Assembly (NCBI GenBank): GCA_002841595.1
Contig: PHAD01000008.1
Location: 1 to 56,131, forward strand
DNA from: Firmicutes bacterium HGW-Firmicutes-12
Lineage (GTDB): Bacteria; Bacillota; Peptococcia; DRI-13; PHAD01
DNA length: 56,131 bases
Direction: 5' to 3'
Below are positions 1,391 through 53,879 of this stretch, piece after piece (the stretch's first letter is position 1; each line of letters starts with the position of its first letter). Both the position numbers and the translations under genes were made by a program. The notes beneath the pieces are model-generated. The model did not search any database and was not told the origin of the DNA. It saw only the letters and a program-made list of their open reading frames with translations.

Positions 1391-1417
1391 AACTTGCTGG
1401 GAAAGGAGGAAATTGGA

Positions 1418-2326: not shown

Positions 2327-2356
2327 TAATTATGCTGCATAAGGGAGGGATTACGA

Positions 2357-22016: not shown

Positions 22017-24689
22017 ATGGATACAACTGGCAAACCAATAAAAAAAGGCAAGCTGACAGTATTTTTAGGATCAGTTGCTGGAGTTGGGAAAACCTATGCT
22101 ATGCTTGAGGCTGGATATGACAAATATATGCATGGAAATGATGCAGTTGTTGGCTGTATTGATATGCCTAAGAAGACGGATTTGGCAACTCTGCTATGCA
22201 AAATCCCCATATTGTTAAAAGGAGAAAAGGCAAAGGAATCAGCTGCTAAAATTGCGGAGCTAGACATTGATGCGGTTTTAGACCGTAAACCACAATTGGT
22301 TATTATTGATAACCTGGCACATTTGAATGATACAGCTTATCGTCATAGTTACCGTTATCAAGATGTGCAAGAAATACTGGATTTTGGGATAGATGTATAT
22401 ACCACTATGGATATCTTTCATGTGGAAAGTCTAAAGGATATAGTGGAGCAAATTACTGGTATAAAGGGTCAACATACTGTCCCAGATGGATTTATTGAAA
22501 AGGCCGAGTTGATACTAATTGATGTATCTCAAGATGAGATAATACAGCGAATTAAAGACGAGAAGATTATTTTACCACAGGAATTAGGCCAAAACACAGA
22601 TGACTTTTTTCGTCCTGGTAATATAAATGCATTACGGGAATTGGCATTAAGATATACTGCCCAGCGTGTGGACAAGCAATTGAGTGAATATATGCAGGAA
22701 CATGATATTAAAGGACCTTGGCCTGCGAGTGAACGTATTTTGGCCTGTATTAGTCCGAGTCCTTTTTCAACGCAGGTAATACGTGCAGCCAGAAGAATGG
22801 CAGATGCACTAAAAGCAGAATGGGCAGTTATATATGTAGAAACACATTATCATTCACCGCAAAACGAGGTTGTCTATAATCAGCTAGCGAAGAATTTGCT
22901 TTTAGCCGAGGAATTGGGAGCTGAAATCATTACACTCACTGGAGATGATTTTGCCCAGGAGATTCTTTTAGTATCAAAACGTAAGAACATTACTCAAATC
23001 GTGTTAGGGAAACCCGCTCATTCGCGTATAGAGGAACTGAGGGGGTCTGTAGTTGACAGGGTTCTTCGAGAAAGTCAGGGTATAAGTGTCCACATTATTC
23101 CTGGTAAAAGCGTGACGAAGGAAAAACAGTCTATTGCAGTATATCGAAGTTTGAGACAGTGCCGATTATTTCCGTATACACTTACGCTCCTTCTTGTTGT
23201 GCTTATTACACTTATTAATAAATATATTGGTTTTGATTTGCCTAATATAGTGTTGCTTTATCTTCTGCCTGTTTTATTTAGTGGAGCATATTGGGGAAGA
23301 GGTCCATCGATAATGGCCTCGCTATTGGGAGTATTAGCCTTCGATATTCTCTTTGTTCCACCGATTCATAGTATCACAGTAGCTGATTTAAAATATTTAG
23401 TTAGTTTTGTAATATTTTTAGTTGTTGCCGTTACTACAGGCACTATGGCTAATCGTTTAAGATACCAGGCGGAACTTGCACGTAGAAGAGAAGCGAGGAC
23501 AGCAGCTCTTTATTCTCTTAGCCGTAAAATAGTAGCTGAAACAGAAATGGGGGGTATATTAAGAACTGTTATTAATGTAGTTTGTGAAAATATTAATGGG
23601 GAAGCTTTTATTTTCACTCCACACGATAATGGAGAATTATCTATTAATGCATTCAGTCAAGGTTTTCAAGAATGCTCTTTAAAAGAAAATGAGAAAGCAG
23701 TAGTTAACTGGGTTTTTGAGCATGGGAGAATAGGTGGACGCGGCACGGAAAATTGGGGAACTTCTCAAGGTCTGTATTTCCCACTTAAGTTCGAGGAGAA
23801 AAATCTGGGTGTTTTAGGAGTCAATATAGCCGAAGCAGAGCTATTGCTTTCATCAGAACATCGTCAAATGTTAGAAGCAATTGCAAATCTCTTATCCTTA
23901 GCTATGTTGAGTCTGCAATTATCAGCAGATGCACAGCAAGCTCGTAATTTGGCTCAATCAGAAGAACTTAGGATAGCTTTGTTTAATTCAATTTCACATG
24001 AATTACGTACCCCGTTAGCTTCAATTCTTGGTGCAGTAACTAGTTTGCTGGAAGGAGAGAATATATATAATCAAGTTGATAGGCAAGTTCTTCTACAAAC
24101 AGTAAATGATGAAGCCTTGCGAATGAATAGATTGGTTGGAAACCTGCTTGATATGGCACGGTTAGAAAGTGGTATGATGCAGTTGAAATATGATTGGTGT
24201 GATATTCAGGAAATTATGGGAGTGGTCTTACGCCGTATTCAGGAGTTAATTGGAGAACGGAAAATCATAGTTGACATGGCACAGAATATACCGTTGATAA
24301 GAGCGGATTTTGTTTTGATAGAGCATGTAATGGTAAATCTTTTAGATAATGCAAATAAATATGCAAAAGCAGGGACAAAGATAACTATTATAATCCTTAT
24401 GGTAGCAGAAGAAATACAAATAGGTGTAAAAAAAATAGGAGAGCCGATAACTGGTATTGATAGAGATAAGATTTTCGAAAAATTTTATAGGTCGAAGTCA
24501 AATCAACAAATTAGCGGTACTGGCTTAGGACTTTCGATATGTAAAGGGATAATTGAGGCCCATGGTGGAAAAATATGGGTAGAATCAACCAGTCATGGGG
24601 GGAATAGCTTCATCTTTACGCTTCCCTTGGATGATAAGATTCCTCCACAAGTCCCCACTGGCAAGGAAGGTGATACTATTGCACGATAA
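22017..24689 (+). CDS. kdpD: KdpD-type sensor histidine kinase (KdpD-N, Usp, 4 TM, GAF, HisKA, HATPase)
   Basis: GKLTVFLGSVAGVGKTYAML KdpD N-domain, H-box SHELRTPL, N-box NLLDNANKY, G2 GTGLGLSI. The G1 box is degenerate (see findings). Confidence 0.9.
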   Translation: MDTTGKPIKKGKLTVFLGSVAGVGKTYAMLEAGYDKYMHGNDAVVGCIDMPKKTDLATLLCKIPILLKGEKAKESAAKIAELDIDAVLDRKPQLVIIDNLAHLNDTAYRHSYRYQDVQEILDFGIDVYTTMDIFHVESLKDIVEQITGIKGQHTVPDGFIEKAELILIDVSQDEIIQRIKDEKIILPQELGQNTDDFFRPGNINALRELALRYTAQRVDKQLSEYMQEHDIKGPWPASERILACISPSPFSTQVIRAARRMADALKAEWAVIYVETHYHSPQNEVVYNQLAKNLLLAEELGAEIITLTGDDFAQEILLVSKRKNITQIVLGKPAHSRIEELRGSVVDRVLRESQGISVHIIPGKSVTKEKQSIAVYRSLRQCRLFPYTLTLLLVVLITLINKYIGFDLPNIVLLYLLPVLFSGAYWGRGPSIMASLLGVLAFDILFVPPIHSITVADLKYLVSFVIFLVVAVTTGTMANRLRYQAELARRREARTAALYSLSRKIVAETEMGGILRTVINVVCENINGEAFIFTPHDNGELSINAFSQGFQECSLKENEKAVVNWVFEHGRIGGRGTENWGTSQGLYFPLKFEEKNLGVLGVNIAEAELLLSSEHRQMLEAIANLLSLAMLSLQLSADAQQARNLAQSEELRIALFNSISHELRTPLASILGAVTSLLEGENIYNQVDRQVLLQTVNDEALRMNRLVGNLLDMARLESGMMQLKYDWCDIQEIMGVVLRRIQELIGERKIIVDMAQNIPLIRADFVLIEHVMVNLLDNANKYAKAGTKITIIILMVAEEIQIGVKKIGEPITGIDRDKIFEKFYRSKSNQQISGTGLGLSICKGIIEAHGGKIWVESTSHGGNSFIFTLPLDDKIPPQVPTGKEGDTIAR

Positions 24690-25371
24690 AGGTGCCCGTG
24701 TATTGATAATTGATGATGAAAACCAGATACGGAAGATGTTGAAGGTTGCTCTCTCTGCACATGGTTATGAAACAGCTGTAGCTAGTTCCGGTCAAGAGGG
24801 ATTGAACCAGGCAGCGTTTTTTCATGCGGATATAATTATTCTAGATTTAGGATTGCCTGATATGGATGGGCTAGAAGTATTAAAGCAGTTGAGGGAGTGG
24901 ACAGAGGCTCCTATAATTGTTCTATCTGTACGTGAAATGGAGACTGATAAAATCAATGCGCTTGATTCAGGAGCGGATGATTATGTTACAAAACCTTTTA
25001 GTATAGGAGAATTATTAGCAAGAATGAGGGTTGCTTTGCGACATGCAGCAAAAACGGATGATGAACCGGTATTGAAATTTGGAGAACTAACAGTTGATCT
25101 ATCGCGTCGTCAGGTCATGTTGGAGGGAAAGGAAGTAAAATTAACGCCAACTGAGTATGATATTTTAAAGAATCTTGTTATTCATGCGGGGAAAGTACTA
25201 ACTCATCGCCAATTACTTAAAGCTATTTGGGGTGTAAATTATCAAGAGCAAGCTCATTATCTGCGAGTATATATAGGTCAACTTCGCAAAAAAATAGAAC
25301 CCGATTTAACAAGACCGAGGTTTATAATTACGGAGCCAGGTGTAGGGTACAGATTTTTAATAAAGGAATAA
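24679..25371 (+). CDS. kdpE: OmpR-family response regulator KdpE
   Basis: RVLIIDDE... ILDLGLPDMDG... TKPF receiver domain, then a winged-helix EPGVGYRF C-terminus. TTG at 24679 lies 7 nt after AAGGAAGGTGAT; GTG 24670 or TTG 24703 are also possible. Confidence 0.88.
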   Translation: MHDKGARVLIIDDENQIRKMLKVALSAHGYETAVASSGQEGLNQAAFFHADIIILDLGLPDMDGLEVLKQLREWTEAPIIVLSVREMETDKINALDSGADDYVTKPFSIGELLARMRVALRHAAKTDDEPVLKFGELTVDLSRRQVMLEGKEVKLTPTEYDILKNLVIHAGKVLTHRQLLKAIWGVNYQEQAHYLRVYIGQLRKKIEPDLTRPRFIITEPGVGYRFLIKE

Positions 25372-25376
25372 AAAAG

Positions 25377-25425
25377 AAATCAGGTAAAATAACCTGGTTT
25401 CTTTCTTTCTTTCTTTCTTATTTAT
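25377..25425 (+). terminator. Terminator after kdpE
   Basis: AAATCAGGT / ACCTGGTTT stem followed by a long CTTT/T-rich tract. Confidence 0.6.
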
Positions 25426-25502
25426 TTAAGTAATAAGTTGTATTAAGGGAAAAAGCATAAGGCACATTTCTTAATCTGTCATATCTTTACGTTATCTTTA
25501 CA

Positions 25503-25556
25503 TATTGCCTCTCAATATTGACATTATATTGACATATTCTAGCTTACAATAATAAT
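25503..25556 (+). promoter_or_regulatory. Direct-repeat operator candidate overlapping a sigma-A promoter of the orf-ktrBA operon
   Basis: ATATTGACAT repeated at 25515-25524 and 25526-25535 (11-bp period), with a third ATATTG at 25503. TTGACA (25529-34), 16 nt, AATAAT (25551-56). Confidence 0.45.
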
Positions 25557-25629
25557 TAAATAAAAAAAGGTATCATAGTTTCCAGGCGGTAAAATGCCTG
25601 GTTTTATAATTGGAACTGGAGGGATATTT

Positions 25630-26160
25630 GTGACGGATAAGAATTTGATGATAGATGAATTGAAAATTCATTTGTATACGGCAAAACATTTGAAGAAATT
25701 ATCAATATATAATATTAATTTTGAGATATGGCAGCAAAAAACGTATAATACCCTTCAAATGCTGTTTGGATACAAATCTGATAGGGGAAAACAGTTTATA
25801 AATATAAGCTTTTCTCCAAGCATAGTGCGAAAAGGTATTAGTCCTCCAGATGTCATCCAGGCATATCAATCAGGACTTAATGAAGCTATTGCTTTACTGG
25901 GTGAGAGTATAAATATTTTGACAGATGAACAGTTCGATATAGGTATAGACAGTTCCAGGATAATATCTAATGTTGAATGCTATATAAGGAAAGCGTTTAT
26001 GCACGAATTCAAAAAAGAAGAGATATTAGATCGTTTAGAGAAAATAAAAGCAACTTGGAATGAAGAGGATTCAAATAAGTTTTTTATAGATAAACAAAAC
26101 AATATGCTTGTTACATTATTAAACAGAATAGTTTCGGATAATGAGGATGATAGATTCTGA
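25630..26160 (+). CDS. Hypothetical protein (176 aa), no family recognised, translationally coupled to ktrB
   Basis: GTG at 25630 lies 6 nt after GGAGGG. The stop TGA overlaps the ktrB ATG (TGATG). AT-rich, Lys/Ile/Asn-rich composition. Confidence 0.6.
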   Translation: MTDKNLMIDELKIHLYTAKHLKKLSIYNINFEIWQQKTYNTLQMLFGYKSDRGKQFINISFSPSIVRKGISPPDVIQAYQSGLNEAIALLGESINILTDEQFDIGIDSSRIISNVECYIRKAFMHEFKKEEILDRLEKIKATWNEEDSNKFFIDKQNNMLVTLLNRIVSDNEDDRF

Positions 26161-27545
26161 TGGAGCAGATTTGGATAAATCAAAGCGACACGAAAAGTAA
26201 TCGAAATAAGACGAAAAAAAAAGGATTGTTAATTCCTTCGCAGGTATTAGTTCTTGGTTTCGCTGTCATGATTTTAGTAGGTGCATTGTTGTTGACAATT
26301 CCGCAGGCAACAGTGGACGGAAAAGGACTTCCTCTTCTGGATGCTATTTTCACTTCAACATCTTCAGCTTGTGTAACTGGACTAGTTGTAGTTGACACAG
26401 GGACCTTTTTTACTATATTCGGTCAGGTTATAATCCTCATCTTGATTCAGATGGGGGGGTTGGGGTTTATGACCTTTGCTACTCTTTTTGCCATAATACT
26501 TGGCAGGAAGATTTCATTTAAAGAAAGACTACTTTTGCAAGAAGCTTTAAATCAAGTTTCGCTTGAAGGTATTGTACGTTTAGCTAAATACATTATTCAA
26601 GTTGCATTATTAATAGAAGGATTTGGAGCTATCATTTTAACGTTACGCTGGCAAACAGAACTAGGGTGGGGGAGGGCCTTGTATTTTGGGATTTTCCACT
26701 CAGTTTCTGGTTTTAATAATGCAGGGTTTGACCTCTTTGGTAACTTCAACAGTCTTGTCGGATATCAAAATGATGTTATTACTAATATGACAATGATTGT
26801 TTTAATAATCACCGGAGGATTTGGATTTGCTGTATTATCAGATTTATATGTAAATAAAGGGAGAAATCTTACCCTTCATACAAAGGTAGTTTTACACATT
26901 TCCAGTTTATTAATAATCATTGGCGCTGTAGTTATTCTTATCTTGGAGTTTAATAATCAAGCCACGATGGGAGGTCTTGATCCACTTAGTAAGTTGCTAA
27001 CATCATTATTTCAGTCGGTAACTCCTCGTACTGCGGGGTTTAATACAATTGCAATTTCTGAAATGAGAGACACTACGCATCTATTTCTTATGCTCCTAAT
27101 GTTTATTGGTGCTTCTCCCGGTTCAACAGGAGGAGGAATAAAGACCACCACGTTTGTAACTATTGCGTTATATGTAAAGAGTACTTTAAAAGGTAATTGT
27201 CAAGTTACTTTACAAGAAAGAAGTATTCCTAAGGATATAATACAAAAAGCAATTACTATTACCTTTTTGTCAATGCTACTAATTTTTATTGTTACTATGT
27301 TTCTCACAATAACAGAGGGTAGTGATTTTATAGGTTTGTTATTTGAGACAATTTCAGCATTTGGTACTGTAGGTTTATCTTTGGGAGTTACCCCAGAATT
27401 ATCCAACATTGGAAGAGTAGCTATAATATGTACAATGTTTTGTGGACGGGTAGGACCTTTAACATTAGTATTTGCTCTAAGCCAAAAAGGAAATAAAGGT
27501 GTTAAAAATATAAAGTATCCAGAGGATAGAATGATTATAGGATAG
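26160..27545 (+). CDS. ktrB: Potassium uptake protein, TrkH/KtrB family membrane subunit
   Basis: 461-aa polytopic protein with repeated selectivity-filter-like motifs (TSSACVTGL, NNAGFD, RTAGFN, FGTVGLSLG). Confidence 0.88.
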   Translation: MEQIWINQSDTKSNRNKTKKKGLLIPSQVLVLGFAVMILVGALLLTIPQATVDGKGLPLLDAIFTSTSSACVTGLVVVDTGTFFTIFGQVIILILIQMGGLGFMTFATLFAIILGRKISFKERLLLQEALNQVSLEGIVRLAKYIIQVALLIEGFGAIILTLRWQTELGWGRALYFGIFHSVSGFNNAGFDLFGNFNSLVGYQNDVITNMTMIVLIITGGFGFAVLSDLYVNKGRNLTLHTKVVLHISSLLIIIGAVVILILEFNNQATMGGLDPLSKLLTSLFQSVTPRTAGFNTIAISEMRDTTHLFLMLLMFIGASPGSTGGGIKTTTFVTIALYVKSTLKGNCQVTLQERSIPKDIIQKAITITFLSMLLIFIVTMFLTITEGSDFIGLLFETISAFGTVGLSLGVTPELSNIGRVAIICTMFCGRVGPLTLVFALSQKGNKGVKNIKYPEDRMIIG

Positions 27546-27554
27546 AGGTGAAAT

Positions 27555-28202
27555 ATGCGTAAGCAGTTCGTTGTTATTGGGTTAGGTCGTTTTGGTAAAA
27601 GTGTAGCAACAAATCTTTCTGCACTTGGGTGCGACGTTCTAGCGATAGATACTAATGAACAAGCCGTTCAAGCGGTAGCAAATCATGTTACACATGCTGT
27701 TCAGGCAGATGCTAGAGAAGAGGAGACATTAAAGGCCTTAGGAATAAGAAATTTTGATGTGGCCATTGTTTCAATTGGTAATGACATTGAAGCAAATATT
27801 CTAATAACAGTTATGCTTAAGGATATCGGTGTTAAAAAGATTGTAGCCAAAGCACAAAACAACCTGCATGGCAAGGTATTAGAAAAGGTTGGGGCCGATA
27901 AAATAGTTTATCCAGAGAAGGATATGGGTACGCGATTAGCTCATAATTTAGTTAGTGCTAATGTAATGGACTATATTGAGTTATTACCTGATATAAGTAT
28001 CATGGAAATAATATCACCTATAGCATTTCATAATAAAAGTCTTGGAGAACTTGATCTTCGTGCACAGTATGGGATCAGCGTATTAGCAATAAAAAAAGAG
28101 AATACTATACTGGTTGCACCAGGAGCTGAAGCAATGATTGAATCAAAGGATATATTAATAGTAATTTGTAATAATGATATAATGTCTAAACTACCACAAT
28201 GA
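27555..28202 (+). CDS. ktrA: Potassium uptake protein, TrkA/KtrA RCK-domain subunit
   Basis: VIGLGRFG Rossmann motif plus a C-terminal TrkA-C domain; 215 aa. Directly follows ktrB. Confidence 0.88.
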   Translation: MRKQFVVIGLGRFGKSVATNLSALGCDVLAIDTNEQAVQAVANHVTHAVQADAREEETLKALGIRNFDVAIVSIGNDIEANILITVMLKDIGVKKIVAKAQNNLHGKVLEKVGADKIVYPEKDMGTRLAHNLVSANVMDYIELLPDISIMEIISPIAFHNKSLGELDLRAQYGISVLAIKKENTILVAPGAEAMIESKDILIVICNNDIMSKLPQ

Positions 28203-30299: not shown

Positions 30300-30414
30300 C
30301 TGCTATTTAGACAATAAAATACACATATCGACAATATATGTCACAGACAAGTAGAATGCAACATTGTATAATTGAATTAAGAAAAAAATGTAATTTATAT
30401 TGAAATTACCATTA

Positions 30415-30471
30415 ATGGTTTGGTTGTTACAAGGCATCCCAGAATGCATAGCAATAGTAGCATACTTCTAG
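30415..30471 (+). pseudogene. Truncated paralogous fragment of the 5' end of the downstream membrane-protein gene
   Basis: Translates MVWLLQGIPECIAIVAYF-stop. The corresponding stretch of the next gene reads LAWILQAIPECMATASLS. Confidence 0.55.
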
Positions 30472-30594
30472 TCCTTATGGCCATATTTATAGGAAATAAC
30501 GAAAACTGTATAAAATATGCAAAAGAAAAAGGGTTGAGGCAATTTTTATCGAATAGAGTTCTGTAAAGGAATTTATAAAGGAGTGTGGATAAAC

Positions 30595-31068
30595 TTGCCT
30601 CTAATACCTATATTAGCCTGGATACTTCAAGCAATACCAGAATGTATGGCTACAGCATCCTTATCTATGAGTTTGTCAACGAGGAATTTACCTTGGGATA
30701 GGATCTGGAAAATAGGCTTATCACAAGCAGTTACTACTTACTTGGTCAGATTATTAGATTTCACTCCTGGAGTACATGTTATTGTATTGGCAGCTACACT
30801 AGGTGTGTTTTGTATCCATTTTGGAAAAGTGGAAATGAAACGAGCTCTTGTCTTTAGTGCAATAACTATGGCAATTCTTGTTTTGGGAGAGTTTTTCTCA
30901 GTTTATACACTTACAAAAATAGGGTTGTTCAATATTAATCAGATGGATGAGAATATTATTAATAGAATAATATTTGGTTATCCACATACCATATTGCTAT
31001 TTCTAATTGCAATTATGATCCAAAAGAAGCAAATAAATCTCAGCTTTATTATTAAAAAAGAAATGTAA
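30595..31068 (+). CDS. Polytopic membrane protein of unknown function (~5 TM), first gene of the agr-like cluster
   Basis: Long ORF made of about five hydrophobic segments. Start uncertain (TTG 30595 or GTG 30583 after AAAGGAG). Lies 8 nt upstream of agrB. Confidence 0.6.
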   Translation: MPLIPILAWILQAIPECMATASLSMSLSTRNLPWDRIWKIGLSQAVTTYLVRLLDFTPGVHVIVLAATLGVFCIHFGKVEMKRALVFSAITMAILVLGEFFSVYTLTKIGLFNINQMDENIINRIIFGYPHTILLFLIAIMIQKKQINLSFIIKKEM

Positions 31069-31076
31069 AAAGGTGT

Positions 31077-31664
31077 ATGTATATGAGTTATTCAAGGTTA
31101 AGTACTAGTATTAGTGATTACTTGGTACGTGAGCTTAAGTATTCAGAAGAAAAAAAAGATATTATTTCCTATTCGTTGGACACCTTGTTTTTATTGATTA
31201 GCGGCTATGTCTTGATTTTGTTGCTAGGTTATATGATTGGAATACCTGGGGCTGTCTTATGTACGCTGTGATCCGGTGACATATTGAGAAAATTCAGCGG
31301 TGGCTCCCATATGTCAAATCCTTATCGATGTCTAGCTGCTACTACAATAATATACATATCGATAAGCTGGTTATCCGTTCAGGCTCATTCAATATGGGGA
31401 AATAAGGATGAGTTTATTATAGCTCTTATTATACTGTGTATGACAAGCATAATAATTATTTATAAATATGCACCGGTAGATTCTCTATCAAAACCAATAG
31501 TATCGACTTCTTTTAGAAAAAAATTGAAGATAGCATCTATTGCTACTGTAGTGTTTTTAAGTTTGCTTGCACTATTCTTTAATAGCAGCTATATTGGGGC
31601 ATCAATAACAGCAGGAATATTCGCTCAGTCTGTTACTTTGTTGCCTTTTCTAAACAGGAAATAA
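31077..31664 (+). pseudogene. agrB: AgrB-family AIP-processing membrane peptidase, interrupted by one in-frame TGA (31269-31271)
   Basis: The two ORF-track entries (31077-31271 and 31284-31664) share one frame. Joined they read ...CTL*SGDILRKFSGGSHMSNPYRC..., matching LRR..GG.H-x6-C. KYAPVDSLSKPI and VTLLPFL match S. aureus VYAPAATKKKPI and ITLLPIF. Confidence 0.8.
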
Positions 31665-31683
31665 TAATAAGGAGGTGTAACGA

Positions 31684-31815
31684 ATGAGTAGAATCAAGTT
31701 TATGCTCTTAACACTTACTACAACTGCATTATTACTGTTTGCTTCTGCAACATCAGTATTTGCTTGCTTATTTGCGCAGTATCAGCCTGAAACTCCAAAA
31801 AGTCTGATTAGATAA
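31684..31815 (+). CDS. agrD: AgrD-type cyclic autoinducing peptide precursor (43 aa). Not in the ORF track.
   Basis: ATG 7 nt after AAGGAGGTG gives MSRIKFMLLTLTTTALLLFASATSVFACLFAQYQPETPKSLIR. This is a hydrophobic leader, a Cys plus 4-residue ring candidate, and a QPExPKSL tail. Terminator follows. Confidence 0.8.
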   Translation: MSRIKFMLLTLTTTALLLFASATSVFACLFAQYQPETPKSLIR

Positions 31816-31821
31816 GCACAA

Positions 31822-31848
31822 GAGGTGGTATATCCACCTCACTTTTTT
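31822..31848 (+). terminator. Rho-independent terminator after agrD
   Basis: GAGGTGG tatat CCACCTC followed by ACTTTTTTG. Confidence 0.8.
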
Positions 31849-31915
31849 GTCCCAATAAAATGTATATATCTACCATACACGTCGTTTGAGTTCTACTTTA
31901 TGGGGGAGGATACAC

Positions 31916-33574
31916 GTGAGAGACATGTATTCTGTGCGGTGTAAAAAAATAAATAAATATGTCTTTACTTCACAGGTTCTTTTTTGTCTGTTGTCAGGCA
32001 TATTATTGGTTCGAGTCCTAGATAAGTTCACACCTTTATCCTTTATGGTATATAGAAATTTAGTAATAGTAATAATTCCAATAACGCTCTTATTGTTATA
32101 TAAATTTGCAGAGAATTACATATGTGTAGGTAGAAAAAATAGCAGTGATTATATATTTAATGCAATATTTCTAGTTGCCAATACGTTTTTACTTTCTTTT
32201 GAGTCAGAGAGTTTCTTTAGGATACTGCTGTTTATGCCTATCGTTGTTTCTGCACTTACATATGGAACAAAAAAAGGATATATGTGGGCCCTTTTCACTA
32301 CAATTGGATTGGTAGTTATAAATATTGTAAATAAAAGTCAAAATCAAAATATTGATATTGATATTTTAGCAGTTAGTTCTTATTGGCTTTTTGCATGGTT
32401 ACTGGGAAAAATGACTGAGGCTGAGTTGGATATTATAGATGAATTGCAAAAACATGCTTCACTAGATGGACTTACGGGAGTCTTTAACCACCGTGTGTTT
32501 CACACTCTTTTAGATGAATACCTTCTTAAAGCAAAGGTGGCTAATAAGAATTTAACAATAATAATGATAGATATAGATTTCTTTAAGTATTATAATGATG
32601 CGTACGGTCACCAAAAGGGAGACGGAGTATTATTTGAGATTGCCCAATTGATAGAAGAAATAGTGGGTGATAAGGGTATATGCGCTAGGTATGGTGGAGA
32701 TGAATTTGCAGTGTTATTACTTAGTTCTAATGGAATAGCAGGAGTAGAGATAGGGGAGAAAATTAGGGAAGCCGTTGAGACAACAACTTTTGAGGGCATG
32801 AACATACTACCGAAGGGTCATTTGACCGTCTCAATTGGAGTGTCCGCTTTCCCTGAACATGGTGAGAATAAGGAGAAGCTTCTTAACAAGGCCGATGAAG
32901 CCTTATATAAAGCTAAGGATACAAATTCAAACAAAGTCGAACTTTATTATTCCGTTTTTGATGAGATAGAAAGGAACCTGCAAGACAAAGAGAAAGATCT
33001 ACTTAGTTCCTTGCGTACACTTATAATGGTTGTAAATGCTAAAGATCGATATACTTATGGACATTCTGAACGGGTTATGCATTATGCTGTGAATATTGGA
33101 AGAAAGATGGCACTTTGGGAATGGGAAATACAAGATCTGATGGTTGGTGGATTATTACATGATATAGGGAAGATAGAGGTTAGCCGTGAAGTATTGAACA
33201 AATCTGGAAAGCTGACGGATGATGAATGGGAAGCGATAAGAATGCACCCATCGTGGGGAGCGGATATGATAAGACCTATATCTTCACTTGCAGGTGCTGT
33301 AAATACAATTCAATACCATCATGAGAATTATGATGGGTCTGGGTATCCTTATGGCTTAAAAGGCCAGAAAATTCCTTTGGGTGCACGTATATTACGTTTG
33401 GCGGACAGTTTCGATGCTATGACAACTAATCGTCCCTATAAGATTGCTAAAACGGTGAAAGAAGCTATTATCGATTTGAAGGAAAATAAGGGCATCTTCT
33501 ATGATCCTGAGATTGTTGATCGCTTTGTGGAATACATACTAGAAATAGGTATTTTGAATGAGGAAGCATCTTGA
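31916..33574 (+). CDS. Membrane-anchored bifunctional c-di-GMP protein: ~6 TM N-domain, GGDEF, HD-GYP
   Basis: LDGLTGVFNHR... DIDFFKYYNDAYGHQKGD... RYGGDEFAV (no RxxD I-site). Then GHSERV... LLHDIGK... HHENYDGSGYP. GTG at 31916 lies 5 nt after GGGGGAGGA. Confidence 0.88.
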   Translation: MRDMYSVRCKKINKYVFTSQVLFCLLSGILLVRVLDKFTPLSFMVYRNLVIVIIPITLLLLYKFAENYICVGRKNSSDYIFNAIFLVANTFLLSFESESFFRILLFMPIVVSALTYGTKKGYMWALFTTIGLVVINIVNKSQNQNIDIDILAVSSYWLFAWLLGKMTEAELDIIDELQKHASLDGLTGVFNHRVFHTLLDEYLLKAKVANKNLTIIMIDIDFFKYYNDAYGHQKGDGVLFEIAQLIEEIVGDKGICARYGGDEFAVLLLSSNGIAGVEIGEKIREAVETTTFEGMNILPKGHLTVSIGVSAFPEHGENKEKLLNKADEALYKAKDTNSNKVELYYSVFDEIERNLQDKEKDLLSSLRTLIMVVNAKDRYTYGHSERVMHYAVNIGRKMALWEWEIQDLMVGGLLHDIGKIEVSREVLNKSGKLTDDEWEAIRMHPSWGADMIRPISSLAGAVNTIQYHHENYDGSGYPYGLKGQKIPLGARILRLADSFDAMTTNRPYKIAKTVKEAIIDLKENKGIFYDPEIVDRFVEYILEIGILNEEAS

Positions 33575-33686
33575 AAGGAATAGCTAGGTATAATAGAGTT
33601 AGACTAATAAACAAATACCTCTACCAAGAATAAGGACATGGTAGAGGTATTTGTTTAATCAAAAAACGATTCAGGTAGGTGTTATT

Positions 33687-35087
33687 ATGTTAGAATTCAT
33701 AGGTTTTGTGCCGCATCCTCCTATTATTATAGAAGAGGTCGGGAGAGAAGAAACAATTAAAATCAGCGCTACAACGAAGGCAATGGAAAAAATATCTGCA
33801 GATATTAAGAATGCTAATCCTGATGTGATCGTTGCTATTACGCCTCATGGACATGTATTTAGTGACGCAGTTACAATAACGGCATTAGATATACTATCAG
33901 GCAACTTGAAAAAGTTTGGAGCACCACAGATAAAGGTAGAATTTAAATTGGATCATGAAGTTGTAAATCGTATTGTAGAAAGCTGTCGAAAGAGTCCAAT
34001 TATCTGTAGTGCCCTAGATAAGAAGCTATTGTTTCAATTTAAATGCCCTGCTGAACTTGATCACGGTTTGGTTGTACCTTTGTCCTTTGTGGTTAAGACA
34101 GGATGGGATGGCAATTTGGTACCAATAAATATGGGGTTACTGCCTTATGAGGAGTTATATCACTTCGGTAAGATACTAAGAGATACATTGGATGCTTTGG
34201 GACGAAGTTGGGTTCTATTAGCTAGTGGTGATATGTCACATAGCTTGCGGCCAGGCTCGCCGTCAGGCTATTCTCCTCAGGGAGCTGTATTTGATGAGAT
34301 AATCAGGCAATCGATACGCGAAGGCAATGTCATGAGAATATTTGATTTAGAGGAAAGCTTGGTTGAAGAGGCTGCGGAATGTGGACTTAGACCTCTTATT
34401 ATGGCTCTAGGCGCATTGGACGGCTATGAGATAAACTCTGAGGAATTATCGTATGAGGGACAATTTGGAGTTGGGTATCTTGTGGCTCAGTTACGCGCGG
34501 GTAAAAATGATATCTCTCGTGAAATAATAAAGGACTTATATAAGAAACGTAAAGAGAGGCTTGATAAATACCAAGATAAAGAAACCATGCCGGTTAAACT
34601 TGCTCGTGAAAGTATTAAGCATTATTTAGAAAAAGGACAGGTATTAAGCGTATCATTAGAGTATGAAGACTTAAAAATCAATAAAGCAGGTGTCTTTGTC
34701 AGTTTGAAGATGCATGGTTCACTACGTGGGTGTATAGGTACTGTAGTACCTGAGCAAGAAAACATTGCTCAAGAGATCATACACAATGCAGTTTCGGCAG
34801 CCATTAGGGACCCGCGTTTTCATCCACTCCAAAAAGAGGAACTTAATGATATTATAATATCGGTTGATATATTAGAAGAACCAGAAGAAGTAGTTAGTAT
34901 GACCGAGCTAAACCCACTAGAATATGGAGTAATAGTATCAAACGGAAAAAAGAAGGGACTTCTGCTACCCAAGCTTACAGGAATTAAAGAACCAGAAGAA
35001 CAGATTGAAATCGCTAAACAAAAAGCAGGAATAAGACCGGATGAACCCGTTAAGTTAGAAAGATTTAGGGTGATAAGGTATACATAA
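33687..35087 (+). CDS. AmmeMemoRadiSam system protein: LigB/extradiol-dioxygenase-B-like (Memo-related) domain fused to AMMECR1
   Basis: N-terminal half has VPHPP, ITPHGHVF, ELDHGLVVPLSF and ASGDMSHSL. C-terminal half has GVFVSLKMHGSLRGCIGT (AMMECR1 LRGCIG motif). Confidence 0.8.
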   Translation: MLEFIGFVPHPPIIIEEVGREETIKISATTKAMEKISADIKNANPDVIVAITPHGHVFSDAVTITALDILSGNLKKFGAPQIKVEFKLDHEVVNRIVESCRKSPIICSALDKKLLFQFKCPAELDHGLVVPLSFVVKTGWDGNLVPINMGLLPYEELYHFGKILRDTLDALGRSWVLLASGDMSHSLRPGSPSGYSPQGAVFDEIIRQSIREGNVMRIFDLEESLVEEAAECGLRPLIMALGALDGYEINSEELSYEGQFGVGYLVAQLRAGKNDISREIIKDLYKKRKERLDKYQDKETMPVKLARESIKHYLEKGQVLSVSLEYEDLKINKAGVFVSLKMHGSLRGCIGTVVPEQENIAQEIIHNAVSAAIRDPRFHPLQKEELNDIIISVDILEEPEEVVSMTELNPLEYGVIVSNGKKKGLLLPKLTGIKEPEEQIEIAKQKAGIRPDEPVKLERFRVIRYT

Positions 35088-35133
35088 TCAGGGTTATAGT
35101 AATATTTATTATATAATAAGAAGGTGAACATAC

Positions 35134-35997
35134 TTGAATAGCGCCAGATATTATCTGTGTACAGATAATAAGCATAATGGGGTACAGTGTTTTCTTTGTC
35201 CACACGAATGCAAGATAGATATAGGACAAAAGGGGCTTTGTCAGGTAAGATATAATAAAGAAGGCAAACTTAAACTTCTAAACTATGGGCAAGTCACAGC
35301 AGCATCACTAGACCCTATAGAAAAGAAACCGCTAAAGAAATATTATCCTGGTCAGAAAGTGTTCTCATTGGGTACATTCGGTTGTAATTTTTCCTGTGAC
35401 TTTTGCCAAAACTGGAAAATATCCCAAGGAGAAAAGCCAGAAAGTAATTATTTGTCTCCAGAAGAAGCTGTAATAAAGGCTCAGGAACTAGTGCAATATG
35501 GCAATATAGGGATTGCCTATACATACTCGGAACCCCTCATGTGGTTTGAATATGTATTGGATACAGCTAAACTCGCAAAAGAAGCAGGTTTAAAGAATAT
35601 TTTAGTGACAAATGGCTATATCAATCAGGAACCTTTAAGAGAGTTGGTACCTTATCTAGATGCTGTTAATCTAGATATCAAGTCGTTCACTGAAGGTTTT
35701 TATCAAAAGGTTTGCGGAGGCAGACTGAGTCCAGTACTCTCAAATGCCAGAATTTTTGCTGAGAATTGTCATCTCGAAATAACAACTCTACTGATACCCG
35801 ACTTAAACGATAGTGTTGAGGAGATAGAGAAGCTGACAACATTTATAGCTGAAATAGACAAAAATATTCCACTTCATCTTACGAGATATTTTCCAAACTA
35901 TGAATTACAGAAGCCAAGTACGTCTTTGGATATATTGTACAAAGCTAAAGAGATAGCCGATAAATATCTAGCCGAAGTTTATTTAGGCAACATATAA
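35134..35997 (+). CDS. AmmeMemoRadiSam system radical SAM enzyme
   Basis: N-terminal CFLCPHEC...GLCQVR cluster, CNFSCDFCQNW radical-SAM CxxxCxxC motif. Adjacent to the AMMECR1 gene. TTG start. Confidence 0.82.
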   Translation: MNSARYYLCTDNKHNGVQCFLCPHECKIDIGQKGLCQVRYNKEGKLKLLNYGQVTAASLDPIEKKPLKKYYPGQKVFSLGTFGCNFSCDFCQNWKISQGEKPESNYLSPEEAVIKAQELVQYGNIGIAYTYSEPLMWFEYVLDTAKLAKEAGLKNILVTNGYINQEPLRELVPYLDAVNLDIKSFTEGFYQKVCGGRLSPVLSNARIFAENCHLEITTLLIPDLNDSVEEIEKLTTFIAEIDKNIPLHLTRYFPNYELQKPSTSLDILYKAKEIADKYLAEVYLGNI

Positions 35998-36304
35998 CTT
36001 GACATTGTATAATAGATTTTTATAGGACATTAATATATAATATTTTCATGATAAAGCAGGAAAAACAAGCTAAAACTAGAAATAACATAATGACCTAAGT
36101 GAAAGGTGAGGCACATGGAAGAGATGCAATACGTCATTTTTAAACTAGTCGGAAGATAGTACTAGGTCAATTATTGTTAAGATAGAATATCAATCCTACG
36201 GTATGAACTAGGTGAAGGAAATCATAACTATATTGATCCGGAGTTAATAAAGGGAATTGTCTTACCTTCCCAAATATAAAATAAATTATCAAAAGGAAGA
36301 ACTT

Positions 36305-37342
36305 ATGCGGTCAATTGAAATAGAACAGTTAAATGCAGGTATGAAAATCGCAAAAGCAATTTATGATGACAACGGGAGGATACTACTAAATGCAGGTGCT
36401 GTCCTTAGTTTCCGTTACATCGATAAACTCACTTCTATGGGGATCCCTTTTATTTATGTTGAAGATGAGATTGTAGGGCCCCTTGATGTGGAAGAGCTTA
36501 TTCATGATAGGGTAAGAATACAGACCGTCAAAGCTCTAAAGCAGGCTGCTGAAAATGTTAAAATGAGGGCAGAAATTGACATACGCCAAATAAGCGATAT
36601 GGTGAACAGTATCCTGGATGATTTAAGGGGTGTGTCCAATCTGATAGTACAGTTGATGGATATCAGATGCAGTAATATGTATATTTACAATCATTCAGTT
36701 TCAGTTTGTATATTAAGTATTATTACTGGTATGGCCCTAGGGCTCGATGAGTTAAAAATCAAAACATTGGGAATGGGAGCAATACTCCACGATGTTGGCA
36801 AATCCTTAAGTGAAGGCCCGGAACACACTTTACATGGTTTTGAGATTTTGCGTGGTAATAAAACTTTAAATGTTACGGCAGCCCATGTAGCTTACCAGCA
36901 TCACGAAAAGTATGATGGAAAGGGTTATCCTCGCCAGCTAAAAGGTGAAGATATACATTTATTTGGGTCTATCGTTGGAACGGCAAATTATTACGATAAT
37001 CTGGTCTCTAACCCAGATCAGAATGAACGGTTATACCCCTATCAAGCATTAGAAATTATTATGGCAGAAAGCGGTAGGGCCCTTCATCCAGAAGTAGTAA
37101 AGGCCTTTTGTAAGAACATTGCCCCGTATCCGGTGGGTACTGCAGTTCGTCTTAATAATGGGGATATAGGAGTCATCATTTCCGTTAATAAACATCTGCC
37201 GACAAGGCCAGTTATTAAGCTTGTGGCTAACAATGTGGGTATTTTATTAAAAACATTCCCGGAAATTGACTTAATGCTTGAAAAAACACTTTTTATCAAT
37301 GAGATTATTAACGAAAAACAGCGTCAAGATATTTTTGGTTAG
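36305..37342 (+). CDS. HD-GYP domain protein (putative c-di-GMP phosphodiesterase) with DUF3391-like N-domain
   Basis: ILHDVGK and QHHEKYDGKGYP motifs. ATG at 36305 after AAAAGGAAG. Confidence 0.85.
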   Translation: MRSIEIEQLNAGMKIAKAIYDDNGRILLNAGAVLSFRYIDKLTSMGIPFIYVEDEIVGPLDVEELIHDRVRIQTVKALKQAAENVKMRAEIDIRQISDMVNSILDDLRGVSNLIVQLMDIRCSNMYIYNHSVSVCILSIITGMALGLDELKIKTLGMGAILHDVGKSLSEGPEHTLHGFEILRGNKTLNVTAAHVAYQHHEKYDGKGYPRQLKGEDIHLFGSIVGTANYYDNLVSNPDQNERLYPYQALEIIMAESGRALHPEVVKAFCKNIAPYPVGTAVRLNNGDIGVIISVNKHLPTRPVIKLVANNVGILLKTFPEIDLMLEKTLFINEIINEKQRQDIFG

Positions 37343-47463: not shown

Positions 47464-47832
47464 TTATTTAATCTTATTGTATTCCTTCACCTTACCAAAC
47501 AATTCATAACAGCCCATAGTTATTAGAAAGAAGCCAAAGATTTTCCGCAGAACTTCAGCTTCTAATTTATTGGCTAAAGTAGCCCCAACGGTAGCTCCTA
47601 TCAGTGCCCCGATTGTTAGGTACAAGGCTAGTATAGTATTTATATTTTGCTGTCGGTAGTGAGTGATTACGGCTACGATCGCGGTAGGAATAAATGCAAC
47701 AAGGCAGATACCTTGAGCCGTATGCTGGCCTATATGCATGAAGATAACTAGGGCAGGAACCAACAGAGTGCCGCCACCTATAGCCATACCACTTAAAATA
47801 CCCATAAATAGCCCGATGATATAGATTAGCAT
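47464..47832 (-). CDS. Half-size TSUP (TauE/SafE) family membrane protein, second half
   Basis: 122 aa, 4 TM, GILSGMAIGGGTLLVPAL motif. Its ATG overlaps the upstream stop (TAATG). Confidence 0.8.
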   Translation of the reverse strand: MLIYIIGLFMGILSGMAIGGGTLLVPALVIFMHIGQHTAQGICLVAFIPTAIVAVITHYRQQNINTILALYLTIGALIGATVGATLANKLEAEVLRKIFGFFLITMGCYELFGKVKEYNKIK

Positions 47833-48197
47833 TACAGTAGCATCCTTGTCCCAGCAATAATCATAAAAATCCCAAATATTTGTTTAAGCCTTAAGGCTGA
47901 AATTTTCAACATTACTTTAGCCCCGATATAACCACCAAGCATACCGCCAACAGCAATTTTCAGTGCTAATGCCAAGTCAAGGTGATTGTTTGACTGGTAG
48001 ATGAAAGCACTTATTATAGTTGTTGGCAGTATAATTGCTAGGGAAGTGCCATGGGCAACATGCTGCTTTTGTCCTAGTAAAAAGACCATGGCTGGGATGA
48101 GAATAGTACCTCCTCCTATCCCGATAAGACCATTGATAAGACCGGTGATAACACCAATAGTACCCAGACGGCAGATGTTAATAAATGAGTAGCTCAT
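47832..48197 (-). CDS. Half-size TSUP (TauE/SafE) family membrane protein, first half
   Basis: GLINGLIGIGGGTILIPAM motif, 4 TM. ATG at 48197 follows AAGGAGG. The ORF-track start at 48236 is an upstream extension. Confidence 0.78.
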   Translation of the reverse strand: MSYSFINICRLGTIGVITGLINGLIGIGGGTILIPAMVFLLGQKQHVAHGTSLAIILPTTIISAFIYQSNNHLDLALALKIAVGGMLGGYIGAKVMLKISALRLKQIFGIFMIIAGTRMLL

Positions 48198-48239
48198 GAA
48201 ACTAATAACCTCCTTACTACGGTTATTAGTTTTCACTTT

Positions 48240-51042: not shown

Positions 51043-52902
51043 ATGATAAATAAACATTTTAGAAATATCAAAAAGGATAACAATACAATAGTGGATAACA
51101 ATTCATTAAGGATTGTTATTTTAGGATGCATAACTATCGTTGTAGCATTAATATCGATGAGTATATTAAGTATGATTATTACCAGTAATGCTGTGCTTAA
51201 TAAGCTCAAGACAAGTGACTTACAGAACATGGCCAGAAGTATTAGTGTGTTCGTTGAAGGGAAAATTGACAAGGCCCTTGATATATCTGTCTTGCTAGCA
51301 AATGATCCCACCGTAGTTGAATGGATTCAGAAAGAAGAACAAAGCAGACTAGAAGGGGAAATCGTACAAGTAAAAATGGCAGAATTGGTCAATGATTTTG
51401 AGTATGATGTTTGCTTTCTTACAAGTGCTGTGACTAATCATTACTGGTCATATAGCAGTGTTGATAAGGAGTTTGTGTTACTGGATACTGTAACACAAAC
51501 TGACAGCAGTGATATGTGGTTCTTTGAAACTTTAAAAATGAAGAAAAAATATGATATTAACATTGATCATAATAAAGAACTAAATGACACGTATGTATGG
51601 ATTAACACCTTGGTGGGTGATATTAATCAACCTCTTGCAGTGAGTGGAGTAGGTATGAATTTAAGCAAGGTGATAAATCAACTTATTGAGGATGAAGAAG
51701 AAAATGAGATAAATAATGATATTTTGCTTGTAGATGGAGAAGGGCAAATATATTTATCTAAAAAACCAGAGTATCTGGAGAAGTCATTAACAGAATATCT
51801 ACCAGGAAACCTAGTACAAGAGATACTAAGAACGAATAATCTGGAAAGTAAGTTTGATATTGCAGATTATGAAACACCTCAAGGAGAATACTTTGATATA
51901 GCGTACAAAAAAATAAAGAATACAGATTGGAATTTAATTGTACAAATACCGCGGGCTGATAGTTTGGGGTTTCTAAAGGCTATTATTATAAACACTATTA
52001 TTTCATGTATTTTGATAATACTTATAATTGTTTTGTTATTCTATTTTATTTCTAATAAAATAGCTAACCCTTATAAGAGAGCTTTACTATTGAATGAGGA
52101 GCTTGAAGAAAAAGTTAAAGAGCGGACGAAGGAGCTTGTGGAAAAGAATAATAGAATAAAAGACAGTATAGAGTATGCAAAAATGATACAGCAAACAATA
52201 CTGCCATCGTCTTATGATATGGGAAAATGTTTAAAAGAGTATTTTATTATTTATGAACCTAGAGATATAGTAGGGGGCGATTTTTACTGGTTGAAGAGCC
52301 ATAGTAAAGGATATCTTGTCATAGTAGGTGATTGTACTGGGCATGGAGTTCCAGGAGCTCTTATGGCAACAGCGGTAAATGCTATGCTTAATCATGTTGT
52401 AGATGGGATTTGTAATGATAATCCTGCGGTTATTCTATATGAGCTAGACAGGCTATTAAAGCAATCATTTAAAATGAACCATAATGAGAAGTTTATATCA
52501 GATGGTGTAGACCTTGGTATAATTTATATAGAAGAGCACAAAGTTATTTTTTCGGGTGCTAACATATCTGTTTTTGTGGTAGACGGTAACAAAATAGATG
52601 AGATTAAAGGAAATAATTGTACAATTGATTATATAAGTGAACAGCAGGATAAGGTTTTTGAGAATTATGAGATCGCCTATAAACAGGGTGTTACGTTATA
52701 TATGGTAACTGATGGCCTTATAGAACAACCCGGAGGGGAAAAGGGTTATCCCTTTGGCAGACGTAGGTTTACAAATTTAATTGAAGCCGCTAGTAAGCTG
52801 GAAATGGATATACAATCATCATATATTCTTAATACTATTAAAGAATATGCAGATGAGCAGATAATTCGTGATGATCTCACACTCCTTGGGTTCAGATTAT
52901 AA
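51043..52902 (+). CDS. SiaA-like sensor phosphatase: TM, Cache-like extracytoplasmic domain, TM, coiled coil, PP2C/SpoIIE phosphatase
   Basis: Two TM segments flank a ~270-aa domain. C-terminal IVGGDFYW... VGDCTGHGVPGALM... VTDGL... RDDLTLLGF are PP2C/SpoIIE motifs. Confidence 0.85.
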   Translation: MINKHFRNIKKDNNTIVDNNSLRIVILGCITIVVALISMSILSMIITSNAVLNKLKTSDLQNMARSISVFVEGKIDKALDISVLLANDPTVVEWIQKEEQSRLEGEIVQVKMAELVNDFEYDVCFLTSAVTNHYWSYSSVDKEFVLLDTVTQTDSSDMWFFETLKMKKKYDINIDHNKELNDTYVWINTLVGDINQPLAVSGVGMNLSKVINQLIEDEEENEINNDILLVDGEGQIYLSKKPEYLEKSLTEYLPGNLVQEILRTNNLESKFDIADYETPQGEYFDIAYKKIKNTDWNLIVQIPRADSLGFLKAIIINTIISCILIILIIVLLFYFISNKIANPYKRALLLNEELEEKVKERTKELVEKNNRIKDSIEYAKMIQQTILPSSYDMGKCLKEYFIIYEPRDIVGGDFYWLKSHSKGYLVIVGDCTGHGVPGALMATAVNAMLNHVVDGICNDNPAVILYELDRLLKQSFKMNHNEKFISDGVDLGIIYIEEHKVIFSGANISVFVVDGNKIDEIKGNNCTIDYISEQQDKVFENYEIAYKQGVTLYMVTDGLIEQPGGEKGYPFGRRRFTNLIEAASKLEMDIQSSYILNTIKEYADEQIIRDDLTLLGFRL

Positions 52903-52921
52903 AATGAAGGGGGAAATAAAT

Positions 52922-53482
52922 ATGGAGTTATCTTTATATGAAATTTACAAAGAACTTAAGTTCAAAAGGATAATATTATGCTATAGTGGGCCTATTGCTC
53001 AAGCAAGTATTGAGGGAGTGGGAAGTACTCTGCGCCGAAATCTTGAAATAGAAGAAGCTGGAAATACTACCAAACTTTCTGTCTTTTCCATGTTTATAGA
53101 GCAGGTTCAGAATGTCTTGAATTATTCAGCTGAGAAATTAAGCAAGACAGAAGAAGATGGCAATGAACTACGCATTGGGGTAAGCGTTATAGGTTATGAG
53201 GAAAATGGGGATTACTTTATTTATTGCGGTAATAGAGTGTATAATTATGATATTCCAAGAATAAGCGAGAGTATTGAACAAGTCCGCAATTTAAGCAAGG
53301 ATGAACTAAAATTACTATATAAAGAACGTAGGAGAATGGAGCCTCAACCTGGAAGTAAAGGTGCAGGACTAGGGATTATCGAGATGGCGAGAAAATCAGT
53401 TATTCCTTTGGAGTATTCCCTTGTAAAAATAGATGAAGAGTTTTCTTTCTTTAGCATCAAAGTCGTGGTTGGGAGGCATTAA
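52922..53482 (+). CDS. SiaB-like protein kinase (RsbW/GHKL-like)
   Basis: ATG after GAAGGGGGA. ...KGAGLGIIEMARKS motif. Sits between the PP2C and DUF1987 genes. Confidence 0.7.
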   Translation: MELSLYEIYKELKFKRIILCYSGPIAQASIEGVGSTLRRNLEIEEAGNTTKLSVFSMFIEQVQNVLNYSAEKLSKTEEDGNELRIGVSVIGYEENGDYFIYCGNRVYNYDIPRISESIEQVRNLSKDELKLLYKERRRMEPQPGSKGAGLGIIEMARKSVIPLEYSLVKIDEEFSFFSIKVVVGRH

Positions 53483-53484
53483 GT

Positions 53485-53865: not shown

Positions 53866-53879
53866 CCTGGAGGAACTTT

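Follow-up and report, generated by a model that had tools for sequence, protein, structure and literature searches.

A conserved agrBD cassette adjoining a membrane GGDEF-HD-GYP enzyme gene in anaerobic Firmicutes, seen in a locally damaged copy

The stretch of DNA analyzed here, called the window below, comprises 56,131 nucleotides (nt) of contig PHAD01000008.1 from Firmicutes bacterium HGW-Firmicutes-12 (assembly GCA_002841595.1). Its forward strand carries, between 30344 and 33574, a cassette in which the genes for an Agr-type peptide signal stand next to the gene for a membrane enzyme with predicted roles in the synthesis and breakdown of cyclic di-GMP (c-di-GMP). The order is a promoter-like site, the remnant of a gene for a small membrane protein (memA), a full-length gene of the same family (memB), agrB, agrD, a hairpin followed by a run of T residues, and a gene whose product joins GGDEF and HD-GYP domains to an N-terminal membrane domain, termed dgcN here (Table 1). 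Agr-type peptide signaling is understood almost wholly through the AgrC-AgrA kinase pair. A search for AgrC-type kinases (HPK10, HATPase_c_5) gave no match among the open reading frames (ORFs) of the window or in the sampled flanks of related cassettes, and no LytTR protein, as would be expected of AgrA (receiver plus LytTR), occurs among the scanned ORFs of the window. Set beside its relatives, the window is best described as holding a locally damaged copy of a conserved and apparently undescribed cassette of anaerobic Firmicutes.

Most of these elements had been read from the bare DNA in an initial annotation, and family searches bear that reading out in large part. The small polytopic protein with five transmembrane (TM) segments stands, as memB encodes 157 to 161 amino acids (aa) and its AlphaFold model consists of five long helices, with a predicted local distance difference test (pLDDT) score of 94.3. 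The 43-aa AgrD precursor with a strong ribosome-binding site was recovered as well (TIGR04223, 31.4 bits against a cutoff of 19; AAGGAGGTG precedes the gene), as was the terminator behind it, which a terminator scan returned as a hairpin with its T-run. The last gene does encode a membrane protein with two intact catalytic domains, both by Pfam and by the motifs readable in the translation. Its GGDEF domain (PF00990, E 5e-42; TIGR00254, E 8e-48) contains YGGDEF and is a predicted cyclase, with no RxxD I-site five residues upstream of the GGDEF motif, and its HD-GYP domain (HD_5, PF13487, E 2e-39; HD, E 8.5e-20) contains HDIGK and GSGYP and is a predicted phosphodiesterase. The start of this gene is most likely the GTG at 31916, which gives a protein of 552 aa, and not the TTG at 31886, because the gene call on an identical contig begins there and GGAGG lies 7 nt upstream. 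That AgrC and AgrA are missing nearby holds true of the window, because its sole two-component pair is KdpD/KdpE (22017-25371). Two further statements of the initial annotation stand only in part. The AgrB homolog placed 8 nt after memB belongs firmly to its family (PF04647, E 5e-37; 127 bits against a cutoff of 23) and starts 8 to 14 nt on, but it is not intact. The start of the locus at 30415 is a real ATG, but it belongs to the 18-codon memA remnant, so that the cassette is not the intact one that had been assumed.

Table 1. Features of the agrBD cassette, with positions numbered from the first nucleotide of the window
Feature	Position	Strand	Description
Promoter-like site	30344-30372	+	-35 CAGACA, 17-nt spacer, -10 TATAAT; 5' of the memA remnant; 10 of 12 matches in consensus scan; putative, consensus match only
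memA remnant (first mem paralog)	30415-30471	+	18 codons, MVWLLQGIPECIAIVAYF, then stop; about 300 nt of the gene gone
memB	30595 (or 30583)-31068	+	157- to 161-aa stand-alone five-TM protein; unannotated family
agrB	31083-31664	+	193 codons, interrupted by a nonsense codon; Pfam PF04647
In-frame TGA, agrB codon 63	31269-31271	+	Leu in relatives
agrD	31684-31815	+	43-aa autoinducing-peptide precursor; TIGR04223; predicted ring Cys-Leu-Phe-Ala-Gln
Hairpin GAGGTGG-TATAT-CCACCTC, then ACTTTTTTGT	31822-31850	+	In the spacer from agrD to the enzyme gene; intrinsic terminator or attenuator; terminator scan
dgcN, N-terminal six-TM input domain of the enzyme	31916-32431	+	Weakly MASE1-like; segments read from sequence
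GGDEF diguanylate cyclase domain	32456-32935	+	Pfam GGDEF, TIGR00254; YGGDEF intact
HD-GYP phosphodiesterase domain	33017-33514	+	Pfam HD_5, HD; HDIGK and GSGYP present; gene end at 33574

The damage affects agrB and memA. At codon 63 of agrB, every relative compared has Leu where the window has TGA, and the nonsense codon lies upstream of the conserved His76 and Cys83 (within FSGGSHMSNPYRC), which we take to be catalytic by analogy with His77 and Cys84 of Staphylococcus aureus AgrB. A metagenome contig (L006; ENA ERZ27239242) differs from the window by a single mismatch over 12,474 nt, and this mismatch is the T-to-G change at 31270 that creates the TGA; codon 63 of the contig is TTA (Leu), and its frame is intact. 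Because an otherwise identical contig has TTA, the stop is interpreted as a very recent strain-specific mutation, and thus a knockout, or as a sequencing error, and not as a feature of the system. Recoding of TGA in agrB is ruled out by the Leu of the relatives together with this TTA. The memA remnant recurs in the same near-identical contig. Its frame matches the N-termini of full-length memA proteins (152 to 158 aa) in three related loci (L001, L002, and L005), and the 3' end of the gene and the intergenic DNA can still be aligned to relatives. By this alignment, the ORF at 30415 is what is left of a second small membrane gene, which relatives carry at full length. Since agrB is interrupted before its catalytic residues and one mem paralog is lost, the strain is probably a peptide nonproducer in which sensing and output are retained. 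Its sensing side appears undamaged, with the caveat that Pro59 of memB is replaced by Asp. Signal-negative variants are a familiar pattern in S. aureus populations, and the agrB knockout, a single-base difference from a contig that otherwise matches the window, may be a natural example of them.

The initial annotation had proposed to compare this neighborhood across related genomes and had counted a lack of conservation against its reading, but the order is kept: one to three copies of mem, agrB, agrD, and the gene for the six-TM GGDEF-HD-GYP protein follow one another in about 17 loci, which represent at least three genomic contexts unrelated to one another. The window belongs to a synteny class of eleven loci (including L001, L002, L005, L009, L010, L011, L021, L022, L023, and L025) with rpsI and an amidase gene on one side and LigB-AMMECR1, radical SAM, and HD-GYP genes and argC on the other. 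Conservation inside that clade proves little, as 11 of the approximately 17 sampled loci share this wider rpsI-argC neighborhood, and taken alone it would suit an adjacency that is a coincidence of local gene order with no functional meaning. Such a coincidence, also named in the initial annotation, is contradicted by three sets of loci with unrelated flanks and is very hard to credit. In Clostridiaceae bacterium BRH_c20a (L013/L014) and in a Dethiobacter metagenome-assembled genome (L018/L019), the four genes stand in this order between entirely different flanks, and in two other loci (L016 and L028) the order recurs with kinase outputs. A metagenome search anchored on dgcN found five new loci, all five with agrB-agrD directly upstream and with mem wherever the contig was long enough. 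Adjacent genes of the distant cassettes either overlap or are separated by 3 to 50 nt. Judged by these gene orders, the adjacency exceeds what shared ancestry of the region explains.

The two loci with kinases show what can stand after agrD. In a member of the Syntrophomonadaceae (L016), mem, agrB, and agrD are followed by a kinase with the domain order dgcN-PAS-HisKA-HATPase, and in the cultured Desulfitobacterium dichloroeliminans LMG P-21439 (L028), mem (Desdi_0669), agrB, and agrD are followed by a 2TM-PAS-HisKA kinase. Because these lineages carry kinases there, the slot after agrD is, across the cassettes compared, one that always holds a predicted membrane signaling protein whose chemistry varies.

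The dgcN domain has six hydrophobic segments with short outer loops, as read from the sequence, and resembles the MASE1 family at scores below its gathering threshold. The domain in the window scores 18.6 bits against PF05231 (cutoff, 29.8; E 0.0011), 5 of 19 dgcN members match MASE1 (best E, 2.4e-7), all under the gathering score, and 4 of the 19 match DUF4118. Further subthreshold matches are to MASE6 and 6TM_PilS, the latter weak and confined to one member. The domain is homologous to the N-terminal domain of the PAS kinase in the Syntrophomonadaceae locus (hhalign, 96%, E 4e-9, 165 columns) and to that of a kinase encoded next to a mem gene at another locus, L020 (96.3%, E 1.7e-9). On these alignments, dgcN is a portable membrane input module that is carried by GGDEF-HD-GYP enzymes and by kinases.

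Across 18 cassettes, AgrD follows the pattern S[VA]FAC-xxxx-[YH]QP[EK]xPKSL, with the tail YQPETPKSL in the window, and variation is confined to the four ring residues. This is the pattern expected of diverging signal specificities. Mean pairwise identity is 0.39 for mem, 0.41 for AgrB, and 0.42 for dgcN versus 0.62 for the catalytic domains, and all three evolve much faster than the latter. In partial Mantel tests that controlled for catalytic-domain divergence, made on 13 related taxa in which the assignment of mem paralogs is uncertain, ring similarity was correlated with similarity of AgrB (r 0.51, p 8e-4) and of dgcN (r 0.57, p 2e-4). The co-variation is a hint that dgcN contacts the peptide. 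Selected pairs had given the opposite impression, that mem co-varies with the peptide more than dgcN does, which was overturned by the full partial Mantel test.

The region around agrD has further features of its own. A stem of GAGGTGG/CCACCTC follows agrD (31822-31840) and is present in nearly all of the cassettes whose agrD-downstream spacers were compared (L001, L002, L005, L007, L009, L010, L012, L013, L016, L021-L024, and L026), with the compensatory variants GAGGCGG/CCGCCTC and AAGGTGGG/CCCACCTT. A T-run follows the hairpin only in the close relatives of the window; elsewhere the ribosome-binding site of the enzyme gene lies within 10 to 20 nt of the hairpin. The conserved structure may be more than a generic terminator. 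Its stem resembles a Shine-Dalgarno/anti-Shine-Dalgarno pair. A scan of the window against Rfam found no known RNA and hence no c-di-GMP riboswitch. Between the window and a locus 87% identical to it (L007), synonymous divergence is 0.15 to 0.20 in memB-agrB and 0.55 to 0.84 in agrD and the enzyme gene, and this jump suggests a recombination breakpoint near the agrB/agrD junction. The highest ratio of nonsynonymous to synonymous divergence in the same comparison is that of memB (0.50), with the changes clustered in the loop between TM4 and TM5.

The mem proteins form a family that carries no current annotation. An exhaustive search with hidden Markov models and profiles of mem yielded 451 clusters at 50% identity, nearly all of them stand-alone proteins of 145 to 170 aa. 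None of 87 members matched a family in a Pfam scan, and memB is also without an NCBIfam family. Foldseek found no fold neighbor of the mem model in the PDB (best E, 0.5), and a profile search of PDB sequences with mem gave no match. Seven residues are near invariant (P19, E20, R56, G63, H65, E103, and P134), all seven are present in the protein of the window, and by the positive-inside rule they are predicted to sit in the outer half of the membrane. Asp replaces the usual Pro at residue 59 of memB (161-aa numbering; 30769-30771) in the window and in L007 (LLDFTPGVH); at least 90% of the close members of the family keep Pro there (LLPFTPGVH). Two possible origins of mem were rejected, as a diverged AgrB (hhalign, 2%) and as a relative of dgcN (0.4%).

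A connection between mem and AgrC comes from a protein of 443 aa, P0151, whose gene lies on a metagenome contig (L015) between agrB-agrD and a gene for a receiver-LytTR protein. P0151 has a mem-like N-terminal domain followed by SPOB_a and HATPase_c_5 domains. Its N-terminus matches mem strongly (hhalign, 99.5%, E 3e-22), with the first 149 residues aligned to the whole of mem and with the conserved PE, R, G-H, E, and P-H residues kept. The best PDB match of its kinase module is S. aureus AgrC, and IMG applies the label AgrC to P0151 and also to a 157-aa member of the mem family. PDB sequences matching an AgrC-type kinase covered kinase modules only, with no AgrC sensor domain among them. Given the domain makeup of P0151 and its position in an agr locus, at least one bona fide AgrC-type kinase therefore has a sensor module homologous to mem. 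A second connection is found at L020, where a gene for a HisKA kinase with a dgcN-type membrane domain is followed, 56 nt on, by a mem gene. Because mem adjoins a dgcN-type kinase at this locus without agrBD, its gene neighborhoods tie it to signaling proteins and not only to peptide synthesis. The pair (1358-3119) adjoins mraZ, and no agrB or agrD was seen within the 10 kb examined. The mem family may thus represent a new membrane sensor module, one without a solved structure.

The reading favored here, and held with moderate confidence, is that the peptide of the cassette is sensed in the membrane by mem, by dgcN, or by both and that the output is c-di-GMP turnover. AgrB, by virtue of its family membership, would convert AgrD to a cyclic thiolactone peptide with four lineage-specific ring residues. 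The peptide would be sensed at the membrane by the cassette's own proteins, whether mem, the MASE1-like six-TM domain, or most likely both as a complex, and the signal would tip the enzyme's balance of cyclase and phosphodiesterase activity. Cell density would then be read as a c-di-GMP level instead of as phosphorylation of AgrA. In some lineages, as the gene orders show directly, a HisKA kinase takes the place of the enzyme behind the same front end. A receptor slot filled by a c-di-GMP enzyme or a HisKA kinase would show cyclic-peptide quorum sensing feeding second-messenger signaling directly. The proposal that the receptor is either the N-terminal domain of the enzyme or the small membrane protein was already part of the initial annotation. 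It gains from the homology of mem to an AgrC-type sensor and from a dgcN domain that is MASE1-like, portable, and co-varying with the ring, but the evidence is computational throughout and the cassette in the window is damaged.

Several other observations weigh against this reading. Either mem or dgcN may be the peptide-binding protein. The polar residues of mem are invariant and not variable, the correlation of mem with ring similarity is weak (r 0.27, or 0.15 with the best paralog pair), and a profile of 87 mem members compared with the N-termini of AgrC-type kinases from S. aureus, Listeria, and phage CDMH1 (L029-L032) reached at most 9% in hhalign. The input of the Desulfitobacterium kinase consists of two TM helices and an extracellular loop, and because this kinase lacks dgcN, a fixed pairing of mem with dgcN cannot be universal. 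The broken agrB may leave the circuit inactive in this strain. In the window, and in its clade, a terminator divides agrD from the enzyme gene, and an AgrCA pair may lie elsewhere in these genomes, as the search for AgrC and AgrA covered the window and the sampled flanks.

The last two points also favor an account in which the enzyme is linked to agrBD without being the receptor. The enzyme would use its membrane domain to sense something else and would control agr expression through c-di-GMP or would merely be coregulated, and the real receptor would be a kinase encoded elsewhere, like VirS in Clostridium perfringens. Orphan agrBD genes with distant or unknown receptors are indeed well documented in Clostridia (PMC10602386; PMC2706048). 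We consider this account improbable for the cassette described here, as it leaves unexplained both the co-variation of dgcN with the AgrD ring beyond catalytic-domain divergence and the fact that a membrane signaling protein with a swappable output always follows agrD.

A better-founded alternative, although still an unlikely one, gives the role of receptor to dgcN alone and has mem assist AgrB in biosynthesis or export, for example, as a protease for leader removal, the role that MroQ or SpsB fills in staphylococci. In the cassettes, mem is always directly upstream of agrB, often overlapping it, and it persists in Desulfitobacterium although the kinase downstream has another sensor. Its near-invariant membrane residues, which include two Glu, an Arg, and a His, resemble an active site more than they do a site for a hypervariable ligand. 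The contrast between strong ring co-variation for dgcN and weak co-variation for mem fits the same division of labor, as does the location of dgcN right behind agrD, where canonical loci encode the AgrC sensor. A purely biosynthetic mem is harder to reconcile with P0151, in which the mem fold, with all of its conserved residues, serves as input to a kinase of the AgrC type encoded within a canonical agr locus, or with the pairing of mem and a dgcN-type kinase where no agrBD is nearby. The one to three mem paralogs of a cassette, moreover, share only 34 to 39% identity with one another, which suits receptors better than housekeeping processing.

A more specific form of the membrane-sensing reading is offered tentatively, at somewhat less than an even chance. 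In this form, the Agr receptor would be split and modular: a free, AgrC-like five-TM protein, mem, would bind the peptide and dock, within the membrane, on interchangeable outputs. At the same level of confidence, these outputs would be mostly MASE1-like GGDEF-HD-GYP enzymes, HisKA kinases in other lineages, and the fused HPK10 kinase in canonical loci. If true, such a split receptor would constitute the first direct pathway from peptide quorum sensing to c-di-GMP in Firmicutes and would offer a class of candidates for the receptors still missing from orphan agrBD systems.

Upstream of the cassette, sequence around the promoter-like site is shared with relatives. The TTGTATAAT block and a more upstream ATCGACAA box occupy the same position in L001, L002, L005, and L025, and the arrangement ATCGACAAnAT...GGACAA...TTGTATAAT (30300-30372 in the window) is kept 5' of the first mem gene in the same loci. 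The block contains two GACAA repeats about 16 nt apart, the second of which overlaps the -35 position, and could be a regulator binding site. Farther upstream, genes for KdpD, KdpE, a 188-aa ORF, TrkH, and TrkA (22017-28202) stand between the amidase gene and a GntR-aminotransferase gene. Because this block is present in the window and in L002 and absent from the corresponding place in L005, it looks like an insertion into the conserved neighborhood. Downstream of the cassette (33651-37342), a gene for a LigB (Memo-like)-AMMECR1 fusion and a radical SAM gene, a pair of the AmmeMemoRadiSam type, are followed by a gene for a second, soluble HD-GYP protein; this set is syntenic with the cassette throughout the Peptococcaceae-like clade and not in the distant cassettes. 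On the reverse strand (47464-48236), two ORFs abut; one of 122 aa matches the first half of the TauE/SafE sulfite exporter family and the other, of 134 aa, the second half, pointing to either a split gene or a frameshift. Finally, four genes run in one direction (51043-54599), encoding a dCache-SpoIIE phosphatase, a DUF6272 protein, a product of 126 aa, and a GGDEF protein of 239 aa, in what looks like a partner-switching module ending in a second diguanylate cyclase.

A literature search, which left some older literature outside its scope, found no agrBD joined to a GGDEF or HD-GYP gene and no description of a stand-alone AgrC-like sensor; the links found between agrBD and GGDEF proteins or c-di-GMP were indirect only. 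Among known systems, the agrBDCA locus of S. aureus shares with the cassette an AgrB-family protein with conserved His and Cys residues, an AgrD with a five-residue Cys ring, hypervariable ring residues, and a conserved, acidic, proline-containing tail, fast-evolving neighboring membrane proteins, and a membrane sensor gene directly after agrD. Unlike that locus, the cassette is without an HPK10 kinase and a LytTR regulator, has a GGDEF-HD-GYP enzyme after agrD, and carries an additional stand-alone five-TM gene before agrB whose profile does not match the sensor of an AgrC-type kinase on an S. aureus-derived contig. In P0151, the mem module is fused, via two further TM helices, to the SPOB_a/HATPase_c_5 kinase, whereas in the cassette mem is a separate protein and the output resides on another polypeptide. 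Separate proteins that act on membrane signaling enzymes are known from other bacteria: in NspS-MbaA and YfiB/YfiR-YfiN, a separate sensor protein modulates a membrane diguanylate cyclase, and PilS senses PilA within the membrane. The proposed arrangement resembles these systems in that a separate protein would modulate a membrane-anchored enzyme through its membrane or periplasmic part. It differs in that mem is an integral five-TM protein with no solved relative and no homology to NspS, YfiB/YfiR, or PilA.

The orphan agrBD loci of Clostridia, including those of C. perfringens and Clostridium difficile (agrB1D1), resemble the cassette in having agrBD without adjacent agrCA. Their receptors are unlinked kinases, such as VirS/VirR in C. 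perfringens, or are unknown, as is still the case for C. difficile AgrD1 (PMC10602386). In C. perfringens, two hypothetical genes, CPE1563 and CPE1562, are cotranscribed with agrBD and were part of the only construct that complemented (PMC2706048). The order CPE1563-CPE1562-agrB-agrD resembles mem-mem-agrB-agrD, a likeness of gene order alone. Widespread and AgrC-sensor-like, mem is a candidate for orphan agr systems, including these two genes 5' of C. perfringens agrBD. Unlike the cassette, the orphan loci of C. perfringens and C. difficile have no c-di-GMP enzyme reported as a part of them in the papers covered. Population signals that feed c-di-GMP turnover are established in Gram-negative bacteria, where BDSF binds RpfR (PAS-GGDEF-EAL) and DSF acts via RpfC on the HD-GYP protein RpfG (PMC13220807). 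As in these systems, a diffusible signal would be converted to c-di-GMP turnover without a dedicated transcription factor step (PMC13220807). Unlike BDSF and DSF, which are fatty acids perceived either via a phosphorelay or by a PAS domain in the cytoplasm, the signal of the cassette would be a ribosomal cyclic peptide sensed at the membrane of a Gram-positive-type Firmicute.

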